A stretch of DNA of 20,094 nt from a virus (Duplodnaviria; Heunggongvirae; Uroviricota; Caudoviricetes), in IMG/VR virus record IMGVR_UViG_2563366990_000010, positions 1 through 20,094 of that record. One strand, written 5' to 3'. Shown piece by piece: positions 2,362-15,708 of this stretch; position 1 is the first letter of the stretch; every line of letters begins with the position of its first letter. The position numbers and the translations under genes were made by a program. Below the pieces are notes generated by a model, which did no database searches, was not told where the DNA came from, and saw only the letters and a program-made list of their open reading frames with translations.

Positions 2362-4430
2362 GATTTATCACCTCCGAAATTTTCAAGCCTGTTGGCAATC
2401 ATGATGGCGATATCAGGGATTGCTGGCGCTGTGGCTATACATGCGGGGTTGGCGCACAAACCATAGACGGCGGCAATCACGAGCTGTCTTTTCCAGTCGA
2501 GAGTTACTGGCTCAGAATTGGCGTCATCGCCGGACGTATCACTGCCTGGCTCGTTCTGAACAACGGTTTCGCCCTCCTGAGCGGCATCAACAGAGTTTTC
2601 CTGAATGATCTTCTCCTCAGTTTGTGCTGAGTCTTCTCCATCAGCGGCGTCATTTTCTCCAAAAGTTTCTGTGTAAGTGCTATCGCCCATTACCGCACTA
2701 CAGTCAGGGCAGTTACCCCCGCCAGTCTGACCACAGACGCGGCAGTTTTTTTCCAGCTCCGGTTGCGCTACTGGGGCTGGCTGTTGCTCTTCTGGCCCGT
2801 TTTGTTGCGTATCCGGGCTGTTTTGTCCCGCTTCTGGGGCAATTTGTTCCACTTTGGACTGATTCTGGTCCTCAGTGTCGCGAGCCTGGATCCCCTTAAT
2901 CCACTTCGGGTCGGTTGGGTCGCTGATGCCTTCAACGAATTCTCCTCGAGAAGCTGCCAGTAATTTGTCGGCATCGACTGGATTCCTGGGGGGAATGTTT
3001 TCCCTGGCTTTATTGAGTTCCTCCCGCAGCTTCTGGTATTTCGTTTCTACAGATGAGACATTTTCCAGTGATTGCGTGTCCTCATTATGTTTAACTGGAA
3101 TTTTTTCCACTGATTCAGGCGCTGCCTGTTCATTAGCCATTGTGTCTGATGCTTGCTGCTTTTCTTCATCGTTATGTTTCTCTTCTGTTGTTCCGCGCTG
3201 CGGCATCGGGGCTGATGAGCGACCGCAGGCAATTTCCACGATCTCCGGATCCGGGTTAGTGTGATCGGTTTCGGTTAACACTTTGTTGAGATACTCAGTC
3301 ACGCGTGCCGGGATGGCCTCAATGCCGATTGGTGCTTCTTTCACGGAAGCCACCACAATGGCGCGGGAATAATCCAGCCCACCGGGCATGGCGATAAATT
3401 TGTCGCGAAAAACAGAAAAGGGCGGCTTATTCTCTGACACGATTTCTTCAACGCGTTTTGCGTGTGCTGGGTGCAGGTTATAAATATCCACATCCATTGA
3501 ACGGGCCAGAACGCCGGTGGCTACATCTCGTGCGAGTGATGTCTTATCATGTTTGAATCCTTCACCACGATCGGTAATATTTCCGCCGCCAGCGTTAGCA
3601 CCGGAAGGCGTACGGGTAATGCCTGAAACATAATTTCCGTTCTGCCATTCTTTTGTCAGCAGGCCCTGATCAAGGTAGTCAGTTTTCATCCAGGTGGAAA
3701 TGAACTTGTCGAATTCAGCCGGGCTGATGCGATGATTTGCAGAGTGGGGGAATGCTTTCCCTACAGATTCAGCCAGGCGACTAAGGTGATAGTTCGTCAG
3801 TTTATCCAGTTCATGATGCGCGGCGCGCACAGCAGTAAGCAGGCTCTGAAGGTAACTGTCCTCTGTGTCCATCTCCATACGGATCACGTTATTGCGTTGT
3901 TCTGGTGTGGCATGATGCCGGTATTTTCCATCTTCATCTTTGCTGAATAAGAAGAGGTGAAGGAAGCGATGAGTAAGGCTCAGAGTGGCGACGGGAATTT
4001 CACACTCAGAACAGTCATCGTCGCTGTCCGGGGATTCGTTTTTCTCCACATCATCCGGAATAGTTCCGTCCGGGTCATCGTTGTCATCGCCAGCAGTTGT
4101 GGCATCTTCACCGTTGATGTTGTCATTGAAGGGTATAGCCATCATGGTGATGCCATCTTCCCCGCCTTTTTCATAGCGGTTGCAGAATTCAGTATCAAAC
4201 ACGCCTTCCGGTGGAAGGTCATTCACGACGGGGAAATTTACGCGAACGGGTTTTTTGAAATCATCCTCGTCGTAGCCTGCATCGTCCATGGCTGCAATGC
4301 AGCGGGAAACTGCGACAGAAAGTTTTCTGGCATCAGCCCAGAAAAAACCGCCTTTGATGCCAAGGCGTTTTCTGACTTTATCGTTTTTTGCTTCGCAGTG
4401 TAGTGCAAAAGTCTGTTTATCAGCGCTCAT
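2358..4430 (-). CDS. Large acidic hypothetical protein, 690 aa
   Basis: Uninterrupted 2073-nt ORF in the leftward early operon immediately upstream of gam, translationally coupled to it. Contains poly-acidic low-complexity tracts, a C-x2-C-x8-C-x2-C motif ([15 protein letters not shown]) and a hydrophobic C-terminal segment. I recognise no family. Confidence 0.8.
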
Positions 4431-4504
4431 TGTATTTAAACCTCTGGCTGGATTAGAATTAGAGGCCCTTTGTCTGATTTCTCCGAATACGGTGACGCAG
4501 GGAG

Positions 4505-4538
4505 AAATCCGGTAGCCTGCGCTGCCGGATTTTTATTT
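4505..4538 (+). terminator. Hairpin plus T-run oriented as a plus-strand intrinsic terminator (possibly bidirectional)
   Basis: 8-bp perfect stem AAATCCGG / CCGGATTT at 4505-4532 with a 12-nt loop, followed by TTATTT on the plus strand. Sits at the 3' end of the minus-strand 128-aa gene. Confidence 0.4.
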
Positions 4539-4924
4539 CAGTGGAAGGTTGCCTGGTTTGCTGTTTTGTGAGTTGTTTTTCCCTTTTCGTGCTGGCATTC
4601 AGAGCAGTCGCACTCAGAATTTTCTCTTGCAAATTCAAGAGCCTGCGCCAGTGTATGGATTTGTTGTGCTCCAATGTTGCTTCTGACGACTTCACATGCA
4701 GCATGAATATATGGGCTTGGTGTTTTGCCATTTAACCCACATGAAACCAAACGACTGTCTTTATATTCGTTATTTCCAACTTCTGTAAGCACTGAAAAAG
4801 AAAATACAAAGTCGATTTTGTATTCTTTGCATATTTTACTGATGCGTTCTGCAATTTCTTTGAGTTCATTTATTGCATCAGGACTGGTTTCGGAAAATAT
4901 TTCATTTTGCGCAAGTTCTTTCAT
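4538..4924 (-). CDS. Hypothetical protein, 128 aa, in an AT-rich block
   Basis: ORF with soluble-looking composition and a Cys-rich C-terminal patch (ECDCSECQHEKGK). Local base composition is visibly more AT-rich than the flanking Red genes. No clear ribosome-binding site. Confidence 0.5.
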   Translation of the reverse strand: MKELAQNEIFSETSPDAINELKEIAERISKICKEYKIDFVFSFSVLTEVGNNEYKDSRLVSCGLNGKTPSPYIHAACEVVRSNIGAQQIHTLAQALEFARENSECDCSECQHEKGKTTHKTANQATFH

Positions 4925-4997
4925 TTTGATTTTTCCGTGATTGATAATTAATGCGGTTTTTATTTCGGCAGATATGGAAGGTGTATTTTATTACTCG

Positions 4998-5219
4998 TCA
5001 CAACGACTCTGCTTTTACGGGTAAGCCATCGCGCCCGATGAAAACTTTAATCATGCAGTCGGTAATGCATGTTTTTGTTGTGAAGTTACGAATATAGAGT
5101 TTTCTCTTTTCAATATTGTTTGCTGAAGCGATATATGTCCGACCTTCATGAAGAACATAATCGCCAGGCGTCACGCACTGACGTGGTATTTCATCAGTTC
5201 CGAAGTGATGAGCAATCAT
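4998..5219 (-). CDS. Hypothetical protein, about 73 aa
   Basis: The ORF track gives 4998-5237 from a GTG. I place the start at the ATG at 5217-5219, which has a GGAG 7 nt upstream. AT-rich. Confidence 0.4.
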
Positions 5220-5676
5220 AATTATCTCCATTTTCACAAATGAACTTTGTTGATGCGGTGCCTGGTGCCTCCAGGTGGCGTTAACCAGTTAACAATTAAC
5301 GCCGGGTCAGGGGACGATGACTTTCCGTGACATCCTGTCGGTTTAACTGTTCCGCGTGCGCTGAGCCGCATTCACCGCATCACAAAATTCACTTTAAAAA
5401 GGGCGGACATCAGCAATCGGCAAACCGATATCCGCCAAGGGTTACACACAGCAATGTTGTTATTCACAACCGGAAGCGCACGGTCGAAGAAATCTAACGA
5501 CAATCCTTCTATGGGAAAGAGTCTTCGCCTCGCGCTTTCGTGTAGTACCCTGGCTTTTCAGGGTAATGTCTGTTCAGTAAAGTGAGAGTGCCGGAACTCA
5601 CCCGTGTCCGGCGCACGATCTCCACCTCACCCGTGGAGAACTCCTCAACTACAAACCCCGTAAGGAGAGTGAATTT

Positions 5677-5886
5677 ATGACACAAGAAGAAAAAGTGATG
5701 TTTCTGATGCGGCTGGCTGTCGATACCTACAACACACAATTCAGGGAGAAAGATATACCTCAAAAGGCAGTTCCTGCCGCGGTAGATAAGGGCGGTGCTA
5801 TTGCCGTATTTTACGATGCATTTGAATCATTTTTTGATGAAAAACTCGACGCTGTTAGCGACTTCGGAACATCGAGTAATAAATAA
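5677..5886 (+). CDS. Hypothetical protein, 69 aa, plus-strand gene inside the leftward operon region
   Basis: Strong AAGGAG ribosome-binding site 8 nt before the ATG at 5677. Preceded by a 437-bp structured non-coding region. Its 3' end overlaps the convergent 119-aa ORF by about 30 nt. Confidence 0.5.
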   Translation: MTQEEKVMFLMRLAVDTYNTQFREKDIPQKAVPAAVDKGGAIAVFYDAFESFFDEKLDAVSDFGTSSNK

Positions 5887-6214
5887 CGTTCATTACGGTT
5901 CTTAAACAACAATCAGTGGGCTTGATGTTGTTCTTTTCAAGCTCACTTGCCATCACTTCCATTATTCTTGCGCTTACACGAATTATTTGGTGGCTGTAAG
6001 CGACGCAACTATCGCTGATATTGCTGTTTATTTCTATTACTTCATTTTCACTGGCGGCGCTAAATTTGGATATGCCGTTTCCATTGTCCTGTTTCAGTGC
6101 TGTTTCCGCTATCCGGATGCGTTCCTGCGTTGCGGAATTTGGGCTAAGTCGATAAACCTGTCTGGCATCTTCCAGAAGCAGGGCGATAATGTGCTTCAGT
6201 TCTGTTTCATTCAT
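5855..6214 (-). CDS. Hypothetical protein, about 119 aa
   Basis: The ORF track gives 5855-6235. I place the start at the internal ATG at 6212-6214, which has a GGAG 7 nt upstream. Confidence 0.5.
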   Translation of the reverse strand: MNETELKHIIALLLEDARQVYRLSPNSATQERIRIAETALKQDNGNGISKFSAASENEVIEINSNISDSCVAYSHQIIRVSARIMEVMASELEKNNIKPTDCCLRTVMNVIYYSMFRSR

Positions 6215-9110: not shown

Positions 9111-9273
9111 TATTCAGGCAGGGCATGGAGCAATACACGGGAATAATTCTGCCACATCTGGAAGAATTTCGCCAGCAACAACACCAACCGCAGCAGCCTG
9201 AAGCCGATTGGGTTAACCCGGAAATTACGGGGACCGTCTGCGGTATGGAGTAAATCTTGTATGCGAGGGGACT

Positions 9274-10350
9274 ATGCGTAATTACGCAACAATTTCACCT
9301 CAGTTCTGGTTAGGCGATACAGGGCGAAAACTCAGGAAGTCTGGTCCGGAATGTATGGTAGTGGCGTTGTATATGATGACCTCGCCTCATTCCAATATGC
9401 TGGGCCTTTATTACCTGCCTGTTTTGTACATTGCTCACGAAACCGGACTTGATCCTGAAGGGGCTTCTAAGGGGCTTCAAATGGCTTGCGAGGCTGGTTT
9501 TTGCAGCTATGACCATGATTCTGAGGTTGTATGGGTGCATGAAATGGCAGCATGGCAGGTTGGTGAATCGCTGAAACCTGGCGATAACCGTTGTGCTGGG
9601 GTAAGAAATGAATATTCCGCGTTGCTGGAAAATCCTTTTTTATCATCCTTTTATGATAGATATAAGGATGATTTCCACCTGGATGTCAGACGTGAATCAT
9701 GTCGGAAAATTGAAGCCCCTTCAGAGCCCCTTTCAAGCCAAGAACAGGAACAGGAACAGGAAAGAGATAAAACCCTTCTGGTCCATGGCGAAAAAATCGC
9801 CACGGACCCACTGGTGGATTCTTGTCCCGTTCTGACTGAACGTCCAGGACCAGCTGGCATGACACCGGAAGCAGATTCCGGGCGTTGTGTGCAGCAGGTG
9901 CTGCTCGTCGAACCGGAGCAACAACACCAACCGCAGCAGCCTGAAGCCGATTCCGCGATGAGCGGGAAGCCGATTGGGTTAACCCGGGCGATGCCGGGAC
10001 CGTCTGCGGGACGAGTTGATTATCCTGACGTGTTCGAACGGGTCTGGCGTGAATATCCGCATCGGGCAGGGTCAAACCCGAAGAAATCCGCGTTCAATGC
10101 CTGGAGGGCCAGATTACGCGAAGGGGTGTCACCGGATGTCGTGCTGGATGGCGTGAGGCGTTACGCAAGATACCTGGAGGCTACCGGGAAAGCGGGAACT
10201 GAATTTGTTCAGCAGGCATCGACGTTTTTTGGCCCGAACAGGAATTTCGAAAATCCGTGGTCGCTGCCGAAGGCTGGCGCAGTCAGCCAGCGTTGCGTGA
10301 ACCACATTTCTGAACCGGACACCGAAATTCCGCCGGGGTTCAGGGGGTAA
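9274..10350 (+). CDS. Replication initiation protein (O-like position), 358 aa
   Basis: Sits in the O slot immediately upstream of the DnaC-like loader. Contains a (CAGGAA)x3 tandem repeat, an AT-rich 9-bp inverted repeat, and a segment that is duplicated upstream of the gene. Confidence 0.6.
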   Translation: MRNYATISPQFWLGDTGRKLRKSGPECMVVALYMMTSPHSNMLGLYYLPVLYIAHETGLDPEGASKGLQMACEAGFCSYDHDSEVVWVHEMAAWQVGESLKPGDNRCAGVRNEYSALLENPFLSSFYDRYKDDFHLDVRRESCRKIEAPSEPLSSQEQEQEQERDKTLLVHGEKIATDPLVDSCPVLTERPGPAGMTPEADSGRCVQQVLLVEPEQQHQPQQPEADSAMSGKPIGLTRAMPGPSAGRVDYPDVFERVWREYPHRAGSNPKKSAFNAWRARLREGVSPDVVLDGVRRYARYLEATGKAGTEFVQQASTFFGPNRNFENPWSLPKAGAVSQRCVNHISEPDTEIPPGFRG

Positions 10351-10356
10351 TCAGCC

Positions 10357-11097
10357 ATGAAAAACATTTCGACAGGAGGGATTCTTGAACGGGTGCGCCG
10401 TCTGGCACCACCGCACGTGGCAGCACCGTTCCGGACGACCGACGAATGGCGGGAATGGCAACTGGCTGAGGGCCGTAAGCGCAGCGAGGAAATTAACCGC
10501 CAGAATCATCAGGCGCGGGTTGAAAAAATCCTGAACCGTGCGGGCATCCAGCCGCTTCACAGGAAGTGCTCATTCGAGAACTACCGGGTGCAGAACGACG
10601 GTCAGCGCCATGCTCTGAGCCAGGCGAAATCCATTGCCGATGAATTGATGACCGGGTGTACAAACTTCGTGTTCAGCGGTAAACCTGGTACCGGTAAAAA
10701 TCACCTGGCAGCAGCGATTGGCAACCGGCTGATGGCGAAGGGGAGAAGCGTGATTATCGTCACCGTGTCCGATGTCATGAGCGTGTTGCATGACGGCTAT
10801 GACAACGGCAAGTCCGGTGAGAAATTTTTACAGGAACTTTGCGGGGTCGACCTTCTGGTCCTGGATGAAATTGGCATGCAGCGGGATACGCGCAACGAGC
10901 AGGTCATACTGAACCAGATCGTCGACCGCAGAACGGCATCACTGCGCACTGTCGGAATCCTGACGAACCTGAATCACGCAGCGATGAGCACACTCCTCGG
11001 CGAGCGGGTGATGGACCGTATGACCATGAACGGTGGTCGTTGGGTGAGTTTTAACTGGGAGAGCTGGCGATCAAACGTTGGGCGTCAGGGTATGTGA
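10357..11097 (+). CDS. DnaC/IstB-like AAA+ helicase loader (lambda P functional analogue), 246 aa
   Basis: Walker A motif GKPGTGKNHLA and Walker B motif LLVLDEIG; begins 7 nt after the O-like stop. Confidence 0.85.
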   Translation: MKNISTGGILERVRRLAPPHVAAPFRTTDEWREWQLAEGRKRSEEINRQNHQARVEKILNRAGIQPLHRKCSFENYRVQNDGQRHALSQAKSIADELMTGCTNFVFSGKPGTGKNHLAAAIGNRLMAKGRSVIIVTVSDVMSVLHDGYDNGKSGEKFLQELCGVDLLVLDEIGMQRDTRNEQVILNQIVDRRTASLRTVGILTNLNHAAMSTLLGERVMDRMTMNGGRWVSFNWESWRSNVGRQGM

Positions 11098-11122
11098 GAA
11101 TTTTTGACGAGGTAAATTTTCG

Positions 11123-11893
11123 ATGGAAACCGTACTGCATGCACTGAAAGCGATGGGAAAAGCCAATTCTGTTGAACTGGCGGCGCGGCTTGATATCAGC
11201 CGTGAAGAAGTTCTCAACGAACTGTGGGAACTCAAAAAAAATGGCGTTGTTGATAAAACGGGTCACACCTGGTTTCTGGCTGTCGAAGGTGAATCCGGGG
11301 TAACCGAAGGGCAGGCACTACAACCTGAAGCGCCGGATGTGGTAACCGAAGAGGTCGCTCCAAAAGTTAGCGCTGACATGATGATTGAGTTTATCTCTCA
11401 GGAGGGGGCTAAAACATGTGAGGAACTGGCGGGTAAGTTCGGTGTCAGCACTCGCAAGGTTGCTTCCACGCTGGCGGTGGTAACCGCAACGGGACGCCTG
11501 GCACGCGTAAATCAGAACGGTAAATTTCGCTACTGCATGCCTGGAGATAATTTACCAGCAGAGCCGAAAGCTGCATCGGTAGCAGAAACCGATGGTAAAG
11601 CCTTTCCTCAGCCAGCAGGTGTTGCGTTACCGGTACAGGAAGCTGCAACACAGGAAGATATTAAAACAGAAACTGTGGCGGACATTGTGCAGTCGTTGCC
11701 ATCGTTTACTGAAACGCGAGCGGATGACCTGGTTTTACCATCGCTGCATATGGCAAACCGCGAACTGCGTCGGGCGAAAAATCATGTCCAGAAGTGGGAG
11801 CGTGTCTGCGCCGCGCTGCGGGAGCTGAACAAGCACCGGGATATTGTTCGACAGATTGCTGATTCTTCCCGCCGTGTTGCATCGGAAAAGTGA
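11123..11893 (+). CDS. Hypothetical protein with a predicted N-terminal winged-helix domain, 256 aa
   Basis: ORF with a ribosome-binding site; N-terminal helix-rich region, central acidic/Pro-rich linker, basic C-terminus. No family recognised. Confidence 0.55.
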
Positions 11894-11908
11894 TTGCCGG
11901 AGGCGCTT

Positions 11909-12325
11909 ATGGCAAAAGTATTTACACAAGAAGAGCGGGAAAAAATTAAGGTACAGGTTGTTGAACTTGTGCGTCTGAGCGGGCGCGAGACGTTACGGCA
12001 ACTGGAAGCGAAAACAGGTGCGACAAGATATCTGATGAGTGTTCTTGCCAGAGAGCTGGTTGCCAGTGGCGATTTATACAACTCCGGCTACGGGCTATTT
12101 CCGTCTGAACAGGCACGTAAGGACTGGATAAAGGCCCGCAAAAAGATGTCGAAAGCAGCAGTGAAAAAAAAGAGCGACCCGGACCTGGTTTATTCATTAC
12201 CAGACGGAGAAATACGTCGTTACGACAGGCGTCTGAACATAATCTGTCGCGAGTGCCGGAAGAGTGAGGTTATGCAGCGCGTGTTGGCGTTTTATCAGGG
12301 GAAATTTCAGGAGGTGATGCTGTGA
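11909..12325 (+). CDS. Hypothetical protein, about 138 aa
   Basis: I place the start at the ATG at 11909, with GGAGG 6 nt upstream; the ORF track starts at 11894. The stop overlaps the methyltransferase start. Confidence 0.5.
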   Translation: MAKVFTQEEREKIKVQVVELVRLSGRETLRQLEAKTGATRYLMSVLARELVASGDLYNSGYGLFPSEQARKDWIKARKKMSKAAVKKKSDPDLVYSLPDGEIRRYDRRLNIICRECRKSEVMQRVLAFYQGKFQEVML

Positions 12326-12810
12326 GTACACCTGCAACCATTCTTGATATGTGCTGTGGCAGCCGTATGTTCTGGTTCGATAAGAATGACGACCGGGCGA
12401 TATTTAGCGATATCAGAAAGGAAGAGCATACATTGTGCGATGGGCGACGCCTAATTATTAGCCCTGACCTGATAGCAGATTTTCGTGCATTACCATTTGC
12501 AGACGCATCGTTTCCGGTTGTTGTATTCGACCCTCCGCATCTTGAGCGTGTTGGTGATAACGCCTGGATGGGAAAGAAATATGGACGGCTGAATAAAGAT
12601 ACCTGGCGTGATGATTTGCGGCAGGGATTTAAAGAAGCCTTTCGTGTGTTGTGGCCACACGGTGTTCTGATTTTTAAATGGAATGAAACGCAAATACCTG
12701 TCCGCCAGATATTGGCACTAACCGACGCGAAACCAATCATCAGCCAGCGCACCGGTAAGAACGATAAAACACATTGGATTATTTTTGTGAAGGAAGCGAC
12801 CAGTGGGTAA
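12322..12810 (+). CDS. Orphan SAM-dependent DNA methyltransferase (amino-methyltransferase type, likely N6-adenine), 162 aa
   Basis: Motif I-like LDMCCGSRMF and motif IV DPPH (VVVFDPPHLE). Small size and no adjacent restriction endonuclease gene. Confidence 0.7.
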   Translation: MSTPATILDMCCGSRMFWFDKNDDRAIFSDIRKEEHTLCDGRRLIISPDLIADFRALPFADASFPVVVFDPPHLERVGDNAWMGKKYGRLNKDTWRDDLRQGFKEAFRVLWPHGVLIFKWNETQIPVRQILALTDAKPIISQRTGKNDKTHWIIFVKEATSG

Positions 12811-13057
12811 ATCAAAATGCCAGGTTTATGGCAACAAGATAGAACCGTGTACGGCACTGGCAAACTCCCTTGAGCATGATGCTGAATACACGACGCGAAA
12901 AGGTCTGCTGATATACAAAATCTGGAATGAGAATTTAACTCGCGACCCTGATTTAGTGATGTTGCGTTCCGGTGAATTTTCTAAATCACCAGTTCGGGTT
13001 TCATTTTGCCCGTTCTGCGGTGAAAGTCTGAAAACATGGGAGAACAGAAATGAATGA
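12803..13057 (+). CDS. Hypothetical small protein with a CxxC motif, 84 aa
   Basis: GTG start overlapping the methyltransferase stop, with AAGGAAG upstream; contains CPFCG. Confidence 0.45.
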   Translation: MGKSKCQVYGNKIEPCTALANSLEHDAEYTTRKGLLIYKIWNENLTRDPDLVMLRSGEFSKSPVRVSFCPFCGESLKTWENRNE

Positions 13058-13361
13058 AATTAGAGAAATACCAGTAGAACGTGATGAATATGGCTGCTGG
13101 ACACATCCAGAATATGAAAAGTTCTGTGACGGTCGGGAATATATTTCAACGGAAGAGTTTAGCGCCTGGATGAAGGCAAATAATCTTCAGTGGACTATTT
13201 GCAGCATGGATGAAGATTATTTAAATCCGGTTGCAGATGACCCCGATATTTCCACCTGGGAACCGGAACGACCAGAGGGCGAAGGCTGGTTTATTGGCTC
13301 CATTCATGATACTGAAGATGGTCCGGTTTGTGTCTGGTTGCGAAACAAGGTGATGGCATAG
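13050..13361 (+). CDS. Hypothetical acidic protein, 103 aa
   Basis: ATG overlaps the upstream stop (ATGA); GGGAGA ribosome-binding site. Confidence 0.5.
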   Translation: MNEIREIPVERDEYGCWTHPEYEKFCDGREYISTEEFSAWMKANNLQWTICSMDEDYLNPVADDPDISTWEPERPEGEGWFIGSIHDTEDGPVCVWLRNKVMA

Positions 13362-13664
13362 ATGAGAATAGAAAAAGCGAAAGCACAGCTCAGGATAATG
13401 CTTGCTGGTCCGGCTGCGAGTTATACGGCACATTCACCAGCCATAAAGAAGGTTCTTGATGAACTGGAAGCCAAAGACAAGCGCATTGCAGAACTGGAAG
13501 CAAGGGAAGTCCAGCTACCGGCTGGCTATGAACTTCGATATGGACACCCGATAAATGCTGATGAGCGTCATGTCATGATACCTAAAGAAAATGGTAGCTG
13601 GCTTTATCTTGCTGATTTAGAACATGCACTACGTGTTGCAGGGATTCGTATTAAAGGAGACTAA
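13362..13664 (+). CDS. Hypothetical protein, 100 aa
   Basis: ATG immediately follows the upstream stop; predicted coiled-coil N-terminus. Confidence 0.5.
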   Translation: MRIEKAKAQLRIMLAGPAASYTAHSPAIKKVLDELEAKDKRIAELEAREVQLPAGYELRYGHPINADERHVMIPKENGSWLYLADLEHALRVAGIRIKGD

Positions 13665-13666
13665 CG

Positions 13667-14022
13667 TGGAAATAAAACCAGAAGATGAGTTAAGTAATAT
13701 TGTTTTATTTCCGGTAAAAGAGGATGACCCACGTAATCAGGTTAATTTTCTTTATGAGCCATCGGAAAGACCATATTGTCATCACGACTCTGTCCGGGTT
13801 GACGAAAAAGAGCGTCAGGTCCGCTGTAAAATCTGCGGTGCAGTTGTGGAGCCGTTTGACTGGATGCTCTCTGTGGCGAAAAGAGAAACCAGACTGGCAG
13901 ATGATGTAAGGCTATTGCGTCAGGAGGAACGGGAAAGGCGGAAAAATATAGAAAAGCTAATTCAGATTGAGCGTAACGCAAAAGCGCGGATGCGCAGAGC
14001 GACAAAATCCAGAACTGAATAA
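13667..14022 (+). CDS. Hypothetical protein with a zinc-ribbon-like motif, about 118 aa
   Basis: I place the start at the GTG at 13667, with AAGGAG 6 nt upstream; the ORF track starts at 13624. Contains CHH...C-x2-C and a basic C-terminus. Confidence 0.45.
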
Positions 14023-14117
14023 TTAAATTTAGCACTGTTAAAAATTTAATCCTTAACCGGAGGGATTTCTGTACCCTCAGAACATCAGGAGTCCGCCTGA
14101 AAGGGCAGTAATGAAAA

Positions 14118-14441
14118 ATGACTGAATTAACAAAAGAGCAATTAATCGAAGAAGCTAAATTAAAAATAGCGATTGCGAAATGCCACCCTAATTCAGAGAT
14201 GGCACGGGTAGAGGGTGAGTTATTCAAAATTGCACTGGCATCGCTGGTAGCAGAGCCAGCTGGTAAATTGCATGAATACAAACCAGTGGGATATCAGCGT
14301 CTGGTCGACGAGTTAACCATGCTGGTAAAGCAGTTAGCCTGGCAACTGAGGAAAGCGAAACCGGGCTGCAAATTACCGGATAAAGCGATGGACTATCTGG
14401 AGCGAAACGGACTTATAAGCGTGGAGGATGTTTTACGATGA
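14118..14441 (+). CDS. Hypothetical protein, 107 aa
   Basis: ORF with a helical-looking translation; its stop overlaps the start of a small hydrophobic ORF. Confidence 0.5.
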   Translation: MTELTKEQLIEEAKLKIAIAKCHPNSEMARVEGELFKIALASLVAEPAGKLHEYKPVGYQRLVDELTMLVKQLAWQLRKAKPGCKLPDKAMDYLERNGLISVEDVLR

Positions 14442-14520
14442 CCTGGCCTGAGGCGTTCACAACGGCAGGAATTGCACTGGCGGTGGCGCTGGTGGAGTAT
14501 TCGATTTGCCGCTGGGGTTG
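14437..14520 (+). CDS. Candidate small membrane peptide, 27 aa (not in the supplied ORF track)
   Basis: ATG at 14437 overlaps the upstream stop (ATGA). Translation MTWPEAFTTAGIALAVALVEYSICRWG has a single hydrophobic helix; the stop codon lies inside the -35 of the downstream promoter. Confidence 0.3.
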
Positions 14521-14546
14521 ACGTAATTACTTATCCGGGATTATAT
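14517..14546 (+). promoter_or_regulatory. Candidate sigma-70 promoter for the first antirepressor gene
   Basis: TTGACG (14517-14522), 18-bp spacer, TATATT (14541-14546). Same architecture as the promoter at 15463-15492. Confidence 0.5.
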
Positions 14547-14602
14547 TCTTCGCACGGTCGAGTTGGCCGTCGGGATTGGAACCCCGGATAGAGACCGCGA
14601 CA

Positions 14603-14628
14603 AACACACGCCGCGAGCGTGTTTTTTA
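14603..14628 (+). terminator. Leader terminator / attenuator-like hairpin about 55 nt downstream of the promoter
   Basis: Stem ACACGC / GCGTGT with loop CGCGA (14605-14621) followed by TTTTTTATT, located about 160 nt upstream of the antirepressor ATG. Confidence 0.5.
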
Positions 14629-14788
14629 TTGTCGTATGCACGCGCACATCTGAATTATGGTGGGGCGCATGGGGGAGCTGAAAAGCTCGCCGGTCGGTTT
14701 CCCGGTAGTTCCAACCCTGTGCGTCTCACCACCCGATGATTGGAACCTTACGGTGGTGATAGTTTAGAAACCACTAGAGGGCGTCATT

Positions 14789-15454
14789 ATGACAACTCAA
14801 ATCTCTGTTGAAACCATCTCCCCGATTACCCATAACCAGATTCTTGTTATTACCACCGAGCTTTTGGCACAACTTTATGGCACCGAAACTAATAACATCA
14901 AAGTGAACTATACGCGCAATGCCGAGCGTTTTGTTTGCGGGAAGCACTACTTCAAATTGGAAGGGGCTGAATTGCGGGAATTTAAGAACAAGGTTACTCA
15001 AAGTAACTTAGTTGCACCGCGTACAAAGCACCTCATCCTCTGGACAGAACGCGGCGCAGCCCGTCATGCAAAAATGCTCGAAACCGATCGAGCGTGGGAA
15101 GTATTCGAAAAACTGGAAGACTGCTATTTCAGCCTGGGAAAAACAATACAAACCGAACAGCAGTCGCAGATTCAGCCACAATTCACAGCCGAGGAAATCA
15201 TCCTCCTTTGCTACATGCAGCTCTGGATGGAAAAAGCCCAGAACATCAGCAAACACCTGTATCCCATTATGAAAGAGCTGAACTCCTCATACACGAACAA
15301 GCTGTATGACATTGCGTTTGAAACCATCTACATGGTGACGAAGAACAGAGACGCGCTACTGCGGGAGGCGGCACGGCTTGACCAGTCAAGTTTCGTTATC
15401 CAGCGGGCCAGACCAATGCTGAAAAGCCTGCGGGCAAGACAATTCGAGTTTTAA
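14789..15454 (+). CDS. Phage antirepressor-like protein, ORF6N-type N-terminal domain with a shared C-terminal domain, 221 aa
   Basis: The N-terminal region resembles ORF6N/KilA-N-type antirepressor domains; AGAGGG ribosome-binding site. The C-terminal 95 aa are about 65 percent identical to the C-terminus of the next gene. Confidence 0.7.
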   Translation: MTTQISVETISPITHNQILVITTELLAQLYGTETNNIKVNYTRNAERFVCGKHYFKLEGAELREFKNKVTQSNLVAPRTKHLILWTERGAARHAKMLETDRAWEVFEKLEDCYFSLGKTIQTEQQSQIQPQFTAEEIILLCYMQLWMEKAQNISKHLYPIMKELNSSYTNKLYDIAFETIYMVTKNRDALLREAARLDQSSFVIQRARPMLKSLRARQFEF

Positions 15455-15462
15455 GGCCAGAT

Positions 15463-15492
15463 TTGACAAATCCGCATTAGCGGGGATATATT
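15463..15492 (+). promoter_or_regulatory. Candidate strong sigma-70 promoter for the second antirepressor gene
   Basis: Consensus TTGACA (15463-15468), 18-bp spacer, TATATT (15487-15492). Confidence 0.55.
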
Positions 15493-15708
15493 CCGCTCCA
15501 TGGTGCTGAACACACCTTCGAAAGCGGAAACCGCGCCCGTCAGTCATGCGGATTTTTTATGTCCATTTTTCAGATATGGTCGGGTAGCGCGTATACCGAA
15601 AAACAGCCGCAAGGCTAAGGATGCGGGCCGAACTTTCGACGGTGTTCAAGTACCCGACCGCCCTGCTGAACACGGGGTGATCTGAACGAATCGAAAGGAC
15701 ATAAAACT

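Follow-up and report, generated by a model that had tools for sequence, protein, structure and literature searches.

The DNA analysed here is the IMG/VR virus record IMGVR_UViG_2563366990_000010 (Caudoviricetes), a stretch of 20,094 nucleotides that is called the window below. This work is centred on positions 11123-14441, a block of eight open reading frames (ORFs) on the plus strand (g1 to g8, Table 1), and above all on the third of them, g3, which encodes a small stand-alone methyltransferase. In the closest genome, the annotation made by the NCBI Prokaryotic Genome Annotation Pipeline (PGAP) also places eight coding sequences in this interval. An earlier reading of the region, made from the letters alone and named here the sequence-only reading, had counted nine genes, but a ninth is reached only with an ORF (14438-14521) that runs past the end of the block. 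The tight packing and mostly translational coupling described in that reading are a fair picture, given the overlaps, abutments and short gaps at the junctions, and a Shine-Dalgarno-like sequence precedes the majority of the block starts. The position of the block, between a helicase loader and antirepressor genes on one strand, and its lambdoid early-operon accessory setting were also correctly recognised.

The methyltransferase and its family

The two motifs that had been noticed in g3 are both present. MCCGSRMF corresponds to residues 10-17 (nucleotides 12349-12372), the SAM-binding motif I being LDMCCGSR (12343-12366), D30 provides the acidic residue of motif II, and motif IV, DPPH, corresponds to residues 70-73 (12529-12540). 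In an alignment of 41 homologues that spans 39-92% identity, motif I takes the variant form LD-x-CCG-x-(R/K), with D9 and C12 invariant and G13 nearly so, and the residues invariant in all members are D9, C12, D30, R32, P48, D70-P-P-H73, E105, R108, K119, W120 and P138. DPPH, in which histidine replaces the usual aromatic residue of (D/N/S)PP(Y/F/W), is also invariant in a separate set of 24 diverse homologues. The conservation of these residues across 41 diverse members argues for strong selection and for an enzyme that is almost certainly active.

The conserved unit has around 155 residues. It has no target-recognition domain, because the N- and C-terminal extensions seen in homologues are unrelated to one another. 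Two related ideas were discarded: that the 248-residue homologues correspond to a gene that is split here (162 plus 84 residues), as the tails of the long forms are related neither to g4 nor to each other, and that the N-terminal extensions of about 60 residues hide a target-recognition domain or a motif X, as they show no mutual alignment and no Pfam domain. The AlphaFold2 (AF2) model built on a diverse alignment (predicted local distance difference test score, pLDDT, 93.2; predicted template-modelling score, pTM, 0.88) was used instead of the one from a shallow alignment (pLDDT 68), and this confident model shows a pared-down Rossmann fold, with loops and a hairpin in place of the helices that normally follow strands 1-3. 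The fold search in BFVD returned one family member and otherwise generic matches.

With 7824 clusters at the 90% identity level and 2024 representatives at the 50% level, this family is a large one, and it is widely distributed. Enterobacterial homologues are 75-98% identical, and the identity is still 45-65% between bacterial phyla, falling to 33.5% for a haloarchaeal virus. Among the 5426 complete genomes of Escherichia coli that were surveyed, 880 (~16%), O157:H7 included, carry the gene, in up to five copies per genome. The 254 phage records with the methyltransferase are spread over Proteobacteria, Firmicutes, Actinobacteria, Bacteroidetes and a haloarchaeal virus, the hosts including Streptococcus, Listeria, Enterococcus, Lactobacillus, Staphylococcus and Gordonia as well as Vibrio, Acinetobacter, Porphyromonas and Helicobacter. 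In every context examined the gene belongs to the early/replication module of temperate phages; distant homologues, too, stand among small early genes, and one of them adjoins a C5 DNA methylase.

As the sequence-only reading had stated, a partner endonuclease is missing: neither the ORFs scanned across the 20-kb window nor the annotation of the closest genome revealed one. For the 80 best IMG/VR loci encoding the methyltransferase, which are the sample for all co-occurrence counts given below, the listed clusters of neighbouring genes likewise include no recognisable endonuclease. Where a type II restriction-modification system would have its endonuclease, g3 is flanked by a 138-residue Ren-like protein and an 84-residue protein of zinc-ribbon type.

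The remaining genes and their setting

Table 1. Features of the block and its surroundings, in window coordinates; the last column gives the junction with the following block gene.
Feature	Positions	Strand	Description	Junction
DnaC/IstB-like loader	10357-11097	+	5' of the block	
g1	11123-11893	+	256 aa; DUF1627/YdaW-type	15-nt gap
g2	11909-12325	+	138 aa; DUF977/'LygF'; mechanically called ORF starts at TTG 11894	4-nt overlap (GTGA)
g3	12322-12810	+	162 aa; class I S-adenosylmethionine (SAM)-dependent amino-methyltransferase, stand-alone	8-nt overlap
g4	12803-13057	+	84 aa; possible zinc ribbon	8-nt overlap
g5	13050-13361	+	103 aa; acidic, Trp-rich	abutting (TAGATG)
g6	13362-13664	+	100 aa; truncated Ead/Ea22-type piece	1-nt gap
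g7	13666-14022	+	118 aa; GTG start; zinc-ribbon-like	95-nt gap
g8	14118-14441	+	107 aa; short chimeric Ead/Ea22-type	
Small hydrophobic ORF	14438-14521	+	27 codons; ATGA overlap with the stop of g8	
isrK-like RNA	14554-14627		Rfam 54.9 bits; promoter-like site 14518-14547 (10/12); terminator 14606-14622	
C4 antisense RNA	14653-14736		Rfam 71 bits	
ORF6N antirepressor gene	14789-15454	+	3' of the block	
sRNA-Xcc1	15578-15667		Rfam 67.5 bits	
BRO-type antirepressor gene	15709-16341	+	3' of the block	
ninB fragment	16396-16515		N-terminal; PGAP on NZ_CP015229	
Cys-rich hypothetical gene	16529-17167		PGAP on NZ_CP015229; mechanically called ORF starts at 16457; no Pfam match	
ninB	17139-17540		complete; PGAP on NZ_CP015229	
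sok antitoxin RNA	19776-19947		full-length; Rfam 101.5 bits	

On the minus strand, the window encodes a YqaJ-type exonuclease, RecT, a RecE-like protein and an S24 repressor; on the plus strand, the order is cII, an O-like gene, the IstB/DnaC-like loader, the block, the ORF6N and BRO antirepressors, ninB-ninH, RusA and Q. A prophage of E. coli 06-00048 (NZ_CP015229) matches positions 9181-19595 with 99.2% identity, and the left arm of the window is a different mosaic relative to that prophage. The block thus belongs to the early-right operon of a lambdoid E. coli prophage of the Rac/Stx (Shiga toxin) type, where it forms a variable accessory segment, and the region is an ordinary lambdoid accessory mosaic that has already been annotated. 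A consensus scan inside the block gave neither a convincing promoter nor a convincing terminator, and the first terminator-like hairpin with a T-run downstream of the block start is the one at 14606-14622. Since convincing internal signals of either kind are absent, the block is probably transcribed together with the replication genes from the early-right promoter. Such an architecture would keep the block genes silent (repressed) in the lysogen and would allow their expression after induction or infection.

The genes of the block had been described as orphans, and this description has to be abandoned: all eight products match PHROG families (E-values from 4e-19 to 3e-137), two of them match Pfam domains of unknown function (DUFs) above threshold, near-identical proteins are annotated in RefSeq genomes of E. 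coli, and 4324 of the 5426 E. coli genomes contain parts of the block. The product of g1, named 'DUF1627 domain-containing protein' in RefSeq, matches DUF1627 (PF07789) over residues 91-245 with 333.5 bits (cut-off 28.1) and PHROG 630 at 3e-137. Its winged-helix-like character, proposed earlier, is supported by the profile search, in which several helix-turn-helix (winged-helix) families appear at sub-threshold or borderline level in two regions; in the protein, two winged-helix domains (residues ~1-50 and ~85-140) precede a helical region at the C-terminus. It also matches weakly the Ren-like phrog_142 (residues 86-137, 4.4e-6).

The following gene, g2, has an ATG start with GGAGG 8 nucleotides upstream, and PGAP gives the identical start. 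Its product matches DUF977 with 106.8 bits (cut-off 22.1) and PHROG 142, 'Ren-like exclusion protein', at 5.6e-46. BLASTP against Ren of phage lambda gives an E-value of 7e-7 (33% identity over 58 residues) in an alignment that covers the C-terminal pattern N-(L/I)-x-x-x-ECR-x-S-x-x-M-x-RVLA-x-Y, and on these matches g2 is a homologue of lambda Ren. Lambda Ren relieves Rex exclusion, an anti-exclusion function; among the block genes other than the methyltransferase, g2 alone has a homologue with a phenotype so defined, and it may have a similar function. The second half of g1 is weakly collinear with g2 (BLASTP E-value 0.033), and these adjacent winged-helix genes may be distant paralogues.

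Two CxxC or zinc-ribbon-like proteins had been pointed out, and both can be found in g4 and g7. The four cysteines of g4 are C6, C16 and C69-x2-C72 (CPFC); it belongs to PHROG 4030 (2.8e-38), a family of unknown function, and has neither a Pfam nor an NCBIfam match. In g7, which begins at GTG after AAGGAG (also the PGAP start), a C-H-H...CKIC (C-x2-C) knuckle is followed by a basic coiled-coil tail; the matches are PHROG 1621 (4e-55), again a family of unknown function, and the TFIIB zinc ribbon of Pfam, below its cut-off (1e-4). On the other hand, the mention of acidic small proteins applies to g5 (isoelectric point, pI, 4.2) but not to the other small proteins of the block (pI 7.6-9.8). The product of g5 falls into PHROG 1372 (1.1e-52), a third family of unknown function, without a Pfam or PDB match.

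The start of g6 is an ATG of its own, with the Shine-Dalgarno-like sequence AAGGTGA. Its residues 32-100 correspond to positions 172-240 of PHROG 250, a family of Ead/Ea22 type with 367 positions (4.4e-19), and Ead_Ea22 of Pfam (PF13935) is matched at sub-threshold level (0.023; 15.7 bits, cut-off 27). PGAP treats 13479-13664 as a pseudogene 'missing N-terminus', that is, as the remnant of a longer gene. In g8 an N-terminal half of Ea22 type, with matches to PHROGs 5117, 60 and 3323, is joined to a C-terminal half that matches PHROGs 660 and 924 at their ends; a protein that neighbours the methyltransferase in other phages has a beginning similar to that of g8, 'MTxxTKEQLIEQAK...ALASLTAEP'. 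PF13935 is not matched by g8, and related neighbouring genes are named 'ead/Ea22-like' by PGAP. From these partial matches, g6 and g8 are best read as fragments or chimeras of the Ead/Ea22 kind. PDB searches with g1, g2, g5 and g7 gave nothing significant, PADLOC assigned the seven non-methyltransferase proteins to no defence system (it returned merely winged-helix noise), and no functional study was found in the literature on DUF1627, DUF977 or LygF.

Taken together, the block is not the coherent unit that had been supposed. At least 80% of its 3.3 kb is found in one of the 5426 E. coli genomes and in no phage record, and each of the seven other block genes accompanies the methyltransferase in 1-8 of the 80 loci; DUF977 does so in five and the g4 family in three, where it is never adjacent. 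The immediate neighbours of the methyltransferase come from many unrelated families, Ead/Ea22-like proteins among them; others we take to be a putative DksA/TraR-like zinc finger and putative MazG-like and VRR-NUC-like proteins. Among 45 E. coli genomes sampled evenly, about 27 have DUF977 directly upstream of the methyltransferase, and these pairs belong mainly to one prophage lineage (~86% nucleotide identity, similar map positions). The block is consequently regarded as a one-off recombinational mosaic of eight independently mobile modules and not as a co-evolved unit. At a smaller scale, all seven differences between the block and NZ_CP015229 sit within 37 bp of the methyltransferase gene (12420-12456); that genome holds five copies of the gene in different prophages, and the differences look like a short gene-conversion tract between co-resident copies.

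The ORF that follows g8, lying mostly beyond 14441, would encode a hydrophobic peptide, MTWPEAFTTAGIALAVALVEYSICRWG, that is kept at 81-89% amino acid identity in three viral contigs which differ in other respects (L003, L005 and L009). Its 3' end overlaps the promoter-like site of the isrK-like RNA, and it may be a small membrane peptide or merely conserved sequence upstream of isrK. Several RNAs were detected in the surroundings, all of them above the Rfam gathering score. The isrK-like RNA, an Hfq-binding small RNA, and the C4 antisense RNA immediately precede the ORF6N antirepressor gene, a position that suggests antirepressor expression under RNA control, of the kind known from P1 immI and Gifsy-1 IsrK-AnrP. 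A match to sRNA-Xcc1 stands just upstream of the BRO-type antirepressor gene, and the sok antitoxin RNA, 3' of the Q region, hints at a module of hok/sok type. Between the BRO-type gene and the complete ninB there are an N-terminal ninB fragment and a Cys-rich gene; the interval 16396-17540 looks like an insertion with partial duplication of ninB, possibly a homing-type element.

Substrate and possible role of the methyltransferase

It is proposed here that the methyltransferase is an early-expressed protector of phage DNA, with low specificity, that acts against restriction, and to this reading we give a probability of roughly 0.55. The enzyme would be made solely during lytic growth. From the type of motif that DPPH represents, it would methylate the exocyclic amino group of a base, at adenine N6 or cytosine N4, and its substrate would be the replicating phage DNA. 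Sequence specificity would be little or none, because there is no target-recognition domain, and the benefit would be that the progeny genomes are shielded from restriction in the next host.

Profile searches, which had been suggested as a check of the motifs, do align them: g3 matches PHROG 954, 'DNA methyltransferase', nearly over its full length (3.6e-87), and the PADLOC models MTase_II (Type II methyltransferase, PDLC03288; 3.6e-72) and oMTase (orphan methyltransferase, PDLC03730; 6.9e-48). In 15 of the 41 homologues N6_N4_Mtase (PF01555) is matched at sub-threshold level in the region from DPPH to RVLxPxG, with a best E-value of 1.2e-3. The name DNA methyltransferase, given by the sequence-only reading, is thus upheld as regards the intact catalytic motifs and the phage profiles, but it goes further than the curated models and the nearest folds, which are generic or belong to RNA enzymes.

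Several observations weigh against DNA as the substrate. No curated DNA-methyltransferase model of Pfam or NCBIfam reaches its cut-off for g3 (N6_N4_Mtase, N6_Mtase, MethyltransfD12, MT-A70 and Dam were considered, at the gathering score); the Pfam matches are the generic Methyltransf_11 and Methyltransf_25 alone, below cut-off, and NCBIfam gives nothing above its cut-off. In the Foldseek ranking M.TaqI comes at position 39, and the amino-methyltransferase folds that rank high act on RNA (Trm11, TrmN, RsmC, Trm14 and TrmM). The PDB sequence searches, with g3 and with the profile of 41 sequences, had as best match (1.4e-5) a generic methyltransferase of unknown function, and the profile gave no other significant match. 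An enzyme of 155 residues without a target-recognition domain has no obvious means of holding DNA or flipping a base, and the 45-65% identity across phyla speaks for a substrate that is itself conserved universally; ribosomal RNA (rRNA) or transfer RNA (tRNA) would be just as suitable. In the literature no paper on a DPPH-type enzyme was found, nor any reported activity, target or specificity for the family. Besides, the PHROG and PADLOC labels are annotations and not experiments, and DNA as the substrate is so far a matter of annotation alone.

The main alternative, a serious one although we consider it unlikely, is that the enzyme targets host rRNA or tRNA and in this way tunes translation or prophage induction. 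A precedent exists in the Shiga toxin prophage enzyme M.EcoPA8orf6770P: annotated as a DNA adenine methyltransferase, it showed by itself no clear activity on DNA, preferred 16S rRNA when in a 1:1 complex with PNB-2 (a winged-helix protein encoded just upstream), and its gene raised spontaneous prophage induction (Gong, Chakraborty, Koudelka, PMC10810198). This precedent lowers the confidence in DNA as the substrate of g3, which is likewise a small methyltransferase gene that follows two winged-helix genes, with a 4-nt overlap. The solved amino-methyltransferase neighbours at the top of the fold ranking are RNA enzymes, Trm11 and an RsmD-like protein are listed by the PDB profile search, and the lack of a target-recognition domain, together with the very high conservation across phyla, would fit a universal RNA. 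However, the structural matches are generic (TM scores of 0.5-0.6), and for this reason the fold ranking discriminates weakly. The PA8 enzyme is an MT-A70 protein with DPPW, unrelated in sequence to g3, neither g1 nor g2 has a homologue in PNB-1 or PNB-2, and the PNB-2 genes that occur near the DPPH family are paired with MT-A70 genes instead. The fact that most of the phage enzymes characterised with (D/N/S)PP(Y/F/W) are DNA methyltransferases also speaks against an RNA target. As to the PA8 result itself, it comes from assays of SAM consumption, in which no modified base was identified (PMC10810198).

It seems improbable that g3 is only a catalytic subunit whose specificity is provided by a neighbour, either g2 (DUF977) or g4 acting like Trm112. 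The overlaps of g3 with both neighbours, its lack of a target-recognition domain and the frequent DUF977 partner in the sampled E. coli genomes would suit such a two-part enzyme; the Trm112-dependent Bud23, Trm11 and Trm9 are among the top fold matches, and the MT-A70/PNB-2 pair can be cited as a precedent (PMC10810198). Yet the E. coli pairing is largely that of a single prophage lineage, both partners are rare in the viral loci, the neighbours on either side of the methyltransferase come from many unrelated families, and homologues from Gram-positive, actinobacterial and archaeal viruses lack g2 and g4 partners. The 248-residue variants are fused to unrelated tails and not to the zinc-ribbon protein, and g4 as a Trm112-like activator was ruled out on its co-occurrence. 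Hardly credible is the idea of a block of decaying prophage cargo in which the methyltransferase no longer has a function. In its favour, there is a truncated remnant among the eight ORFs, two others are short chimeras of Ead/Ea22 type, and there are partial gene duplications nearby in the prophage; but the methyltransferase ORF is intact, its catalytic motifs are invariant across phyla, and the size of the family at both clustering levels is a sign of strong purifying selection. Family matches over the full length are retained by the other ORFs, and Shine-Dalgarno-like sequences by most.

A broader view, possible although doubtful, is that the DPPH enzyme is not a site-specific anti-restriction DNA methyltransferase but the first representative of a class, not described so far, of minimal phage methyltransferases that lack a target-recognition domain. 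The target would be universal: adenines or cytosines of DNA in general or, alternatively, a conserved position of host rRNA or tRNA whose modification reprograms translation in lytic growth. A universally conserved target would explain the degree of identity across bacterial phyla and in the haloarchaeal virus.

As a genome feature the block is routine and carries little weight, and its wider interest is in the methyltransferase family. This family is catalogued and apparently uncharacterised, without a Pfam model of its own; no solved structure or reported substrate was found. If the enzyme methylates DNA non-specifically as proposed, it would be the smallest such methyltransferase known and a useful tool, whereas a host RNA target would extend the claim that prophage 'DNA methylases' regulate translation and the induction of Shiga toxin phages.

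Comparison with known systems

The PA8 locus resembles the present one in having a small 'DNA' methyltransferase gene after two genes of winged-helix type, the nearer of which it overlaps by 4 nt. It differs in the enzyme, an MT-A70 protein with DPPW that matches the Pfam MT-A70 model where g3 does not, and in its location near the int end, whereas g3 lies after the replication genes. BLASTP of the three PA8 proteins against their counterparts among g1-g3 showed no similarity (E = 1.4 for g2 and PNB-2). PNB-2 homologues are present in 12 of the 80 methyltransferase loci and MT-A70 genes in nine. PNB-2 is followed by the DPPH enzyme and then by MT-A70 in three loci (L027, L037 and L045), and the PNB-2 homologue of L027, 53% identical to the PA8 protein, is just upstream of the DPPH enzyme. 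PNB-2 was nevertheless rejected as the partner of the DPPH enzyme, as an MT-A70 gene follows in those loci and elsewhere (L042, L046, L055 and L068) PNB-2 is just upstream of MT-A70 with the DPPH gene apart. It follows from this arrangement that PNB-2 belongs with MT-A70 and that the DPPH enzyme is an independent module, inserted between the partners where it adjoins PNB-2.

Related to this, in four enterobacterial viral loci (L021, L027, L037 and L045, at about 4424-6124) an MT-A70 gene related to that of PA8 begins 11 nt after the DPPH methyltransferase, PNB-2 coming first in three of them; this tandem carriage of two unrelated small methyltransferases implies non-redundant roles. PNB-1 of phage PA8 (L083, 3338-4015) is 68% identical over its first 117 residues to the ORF6N antirepressor of the window (14789-15133), and it is therefore of antirepressor type and not a dedicated methyltransferase accessory.

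The RNA enzymes Trm11, TrmN/Trm14, RsmC and TrmM share 13-19% identity with g3, and generic small-molecule methyltransferases score equally or higher. Besides, these RNA enzymes carry extra RNA-binding domains (THUMP and others) that g3 does not have. With the orphan methyltransferases of phages gathered in PHROG 954 and in PADLOC (derived from REBASE), g3 shares the profile match, the absence of an endonuclease and the place in the phage early region; it is unlike them in being the catalytic core alone (~155 residues) and in its unusual DPPH.

M.EcoGII, from a prophage of E. coli O104:H4, is a non-specific adenine DNA methyltransferase that is silent in the lysogen, and it has been proposed to let the phage overcome host restriction (PMC5778455). 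Like g3, it is prophage-borne and has no endonuclease, and it is a model for how phage DNA could be protected at low specificity. Its architecture is different: M.EcoGII is a 349-residue enzyme of the beta class, with DPPY first, a central target-recognition domain and FxGxG last, whereas g3 has motif I first and DPPH second, no target-recognition domain and less than half the size. The similarity between both is limited to the sub-threshold PF01555 matches in some homologues.

Finally, the block shares its slot, right after the helicase loader and before ninB, with the P-ren-nin region of lambda and with ydaV-ydaW of Rac. The likeness extends to the genes, g2 being a Ren homologue and g1 a member of the YdaW family, and phage records with matching DNA name these genes 'LygF' and 'YdaW family protein', respectively. 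In lambda the slot between P and ninB is filled by ren alone (96 residues), whereas here it holds eight ORFs, followed by elements resembling small RNAs and by two antirepressor genes.

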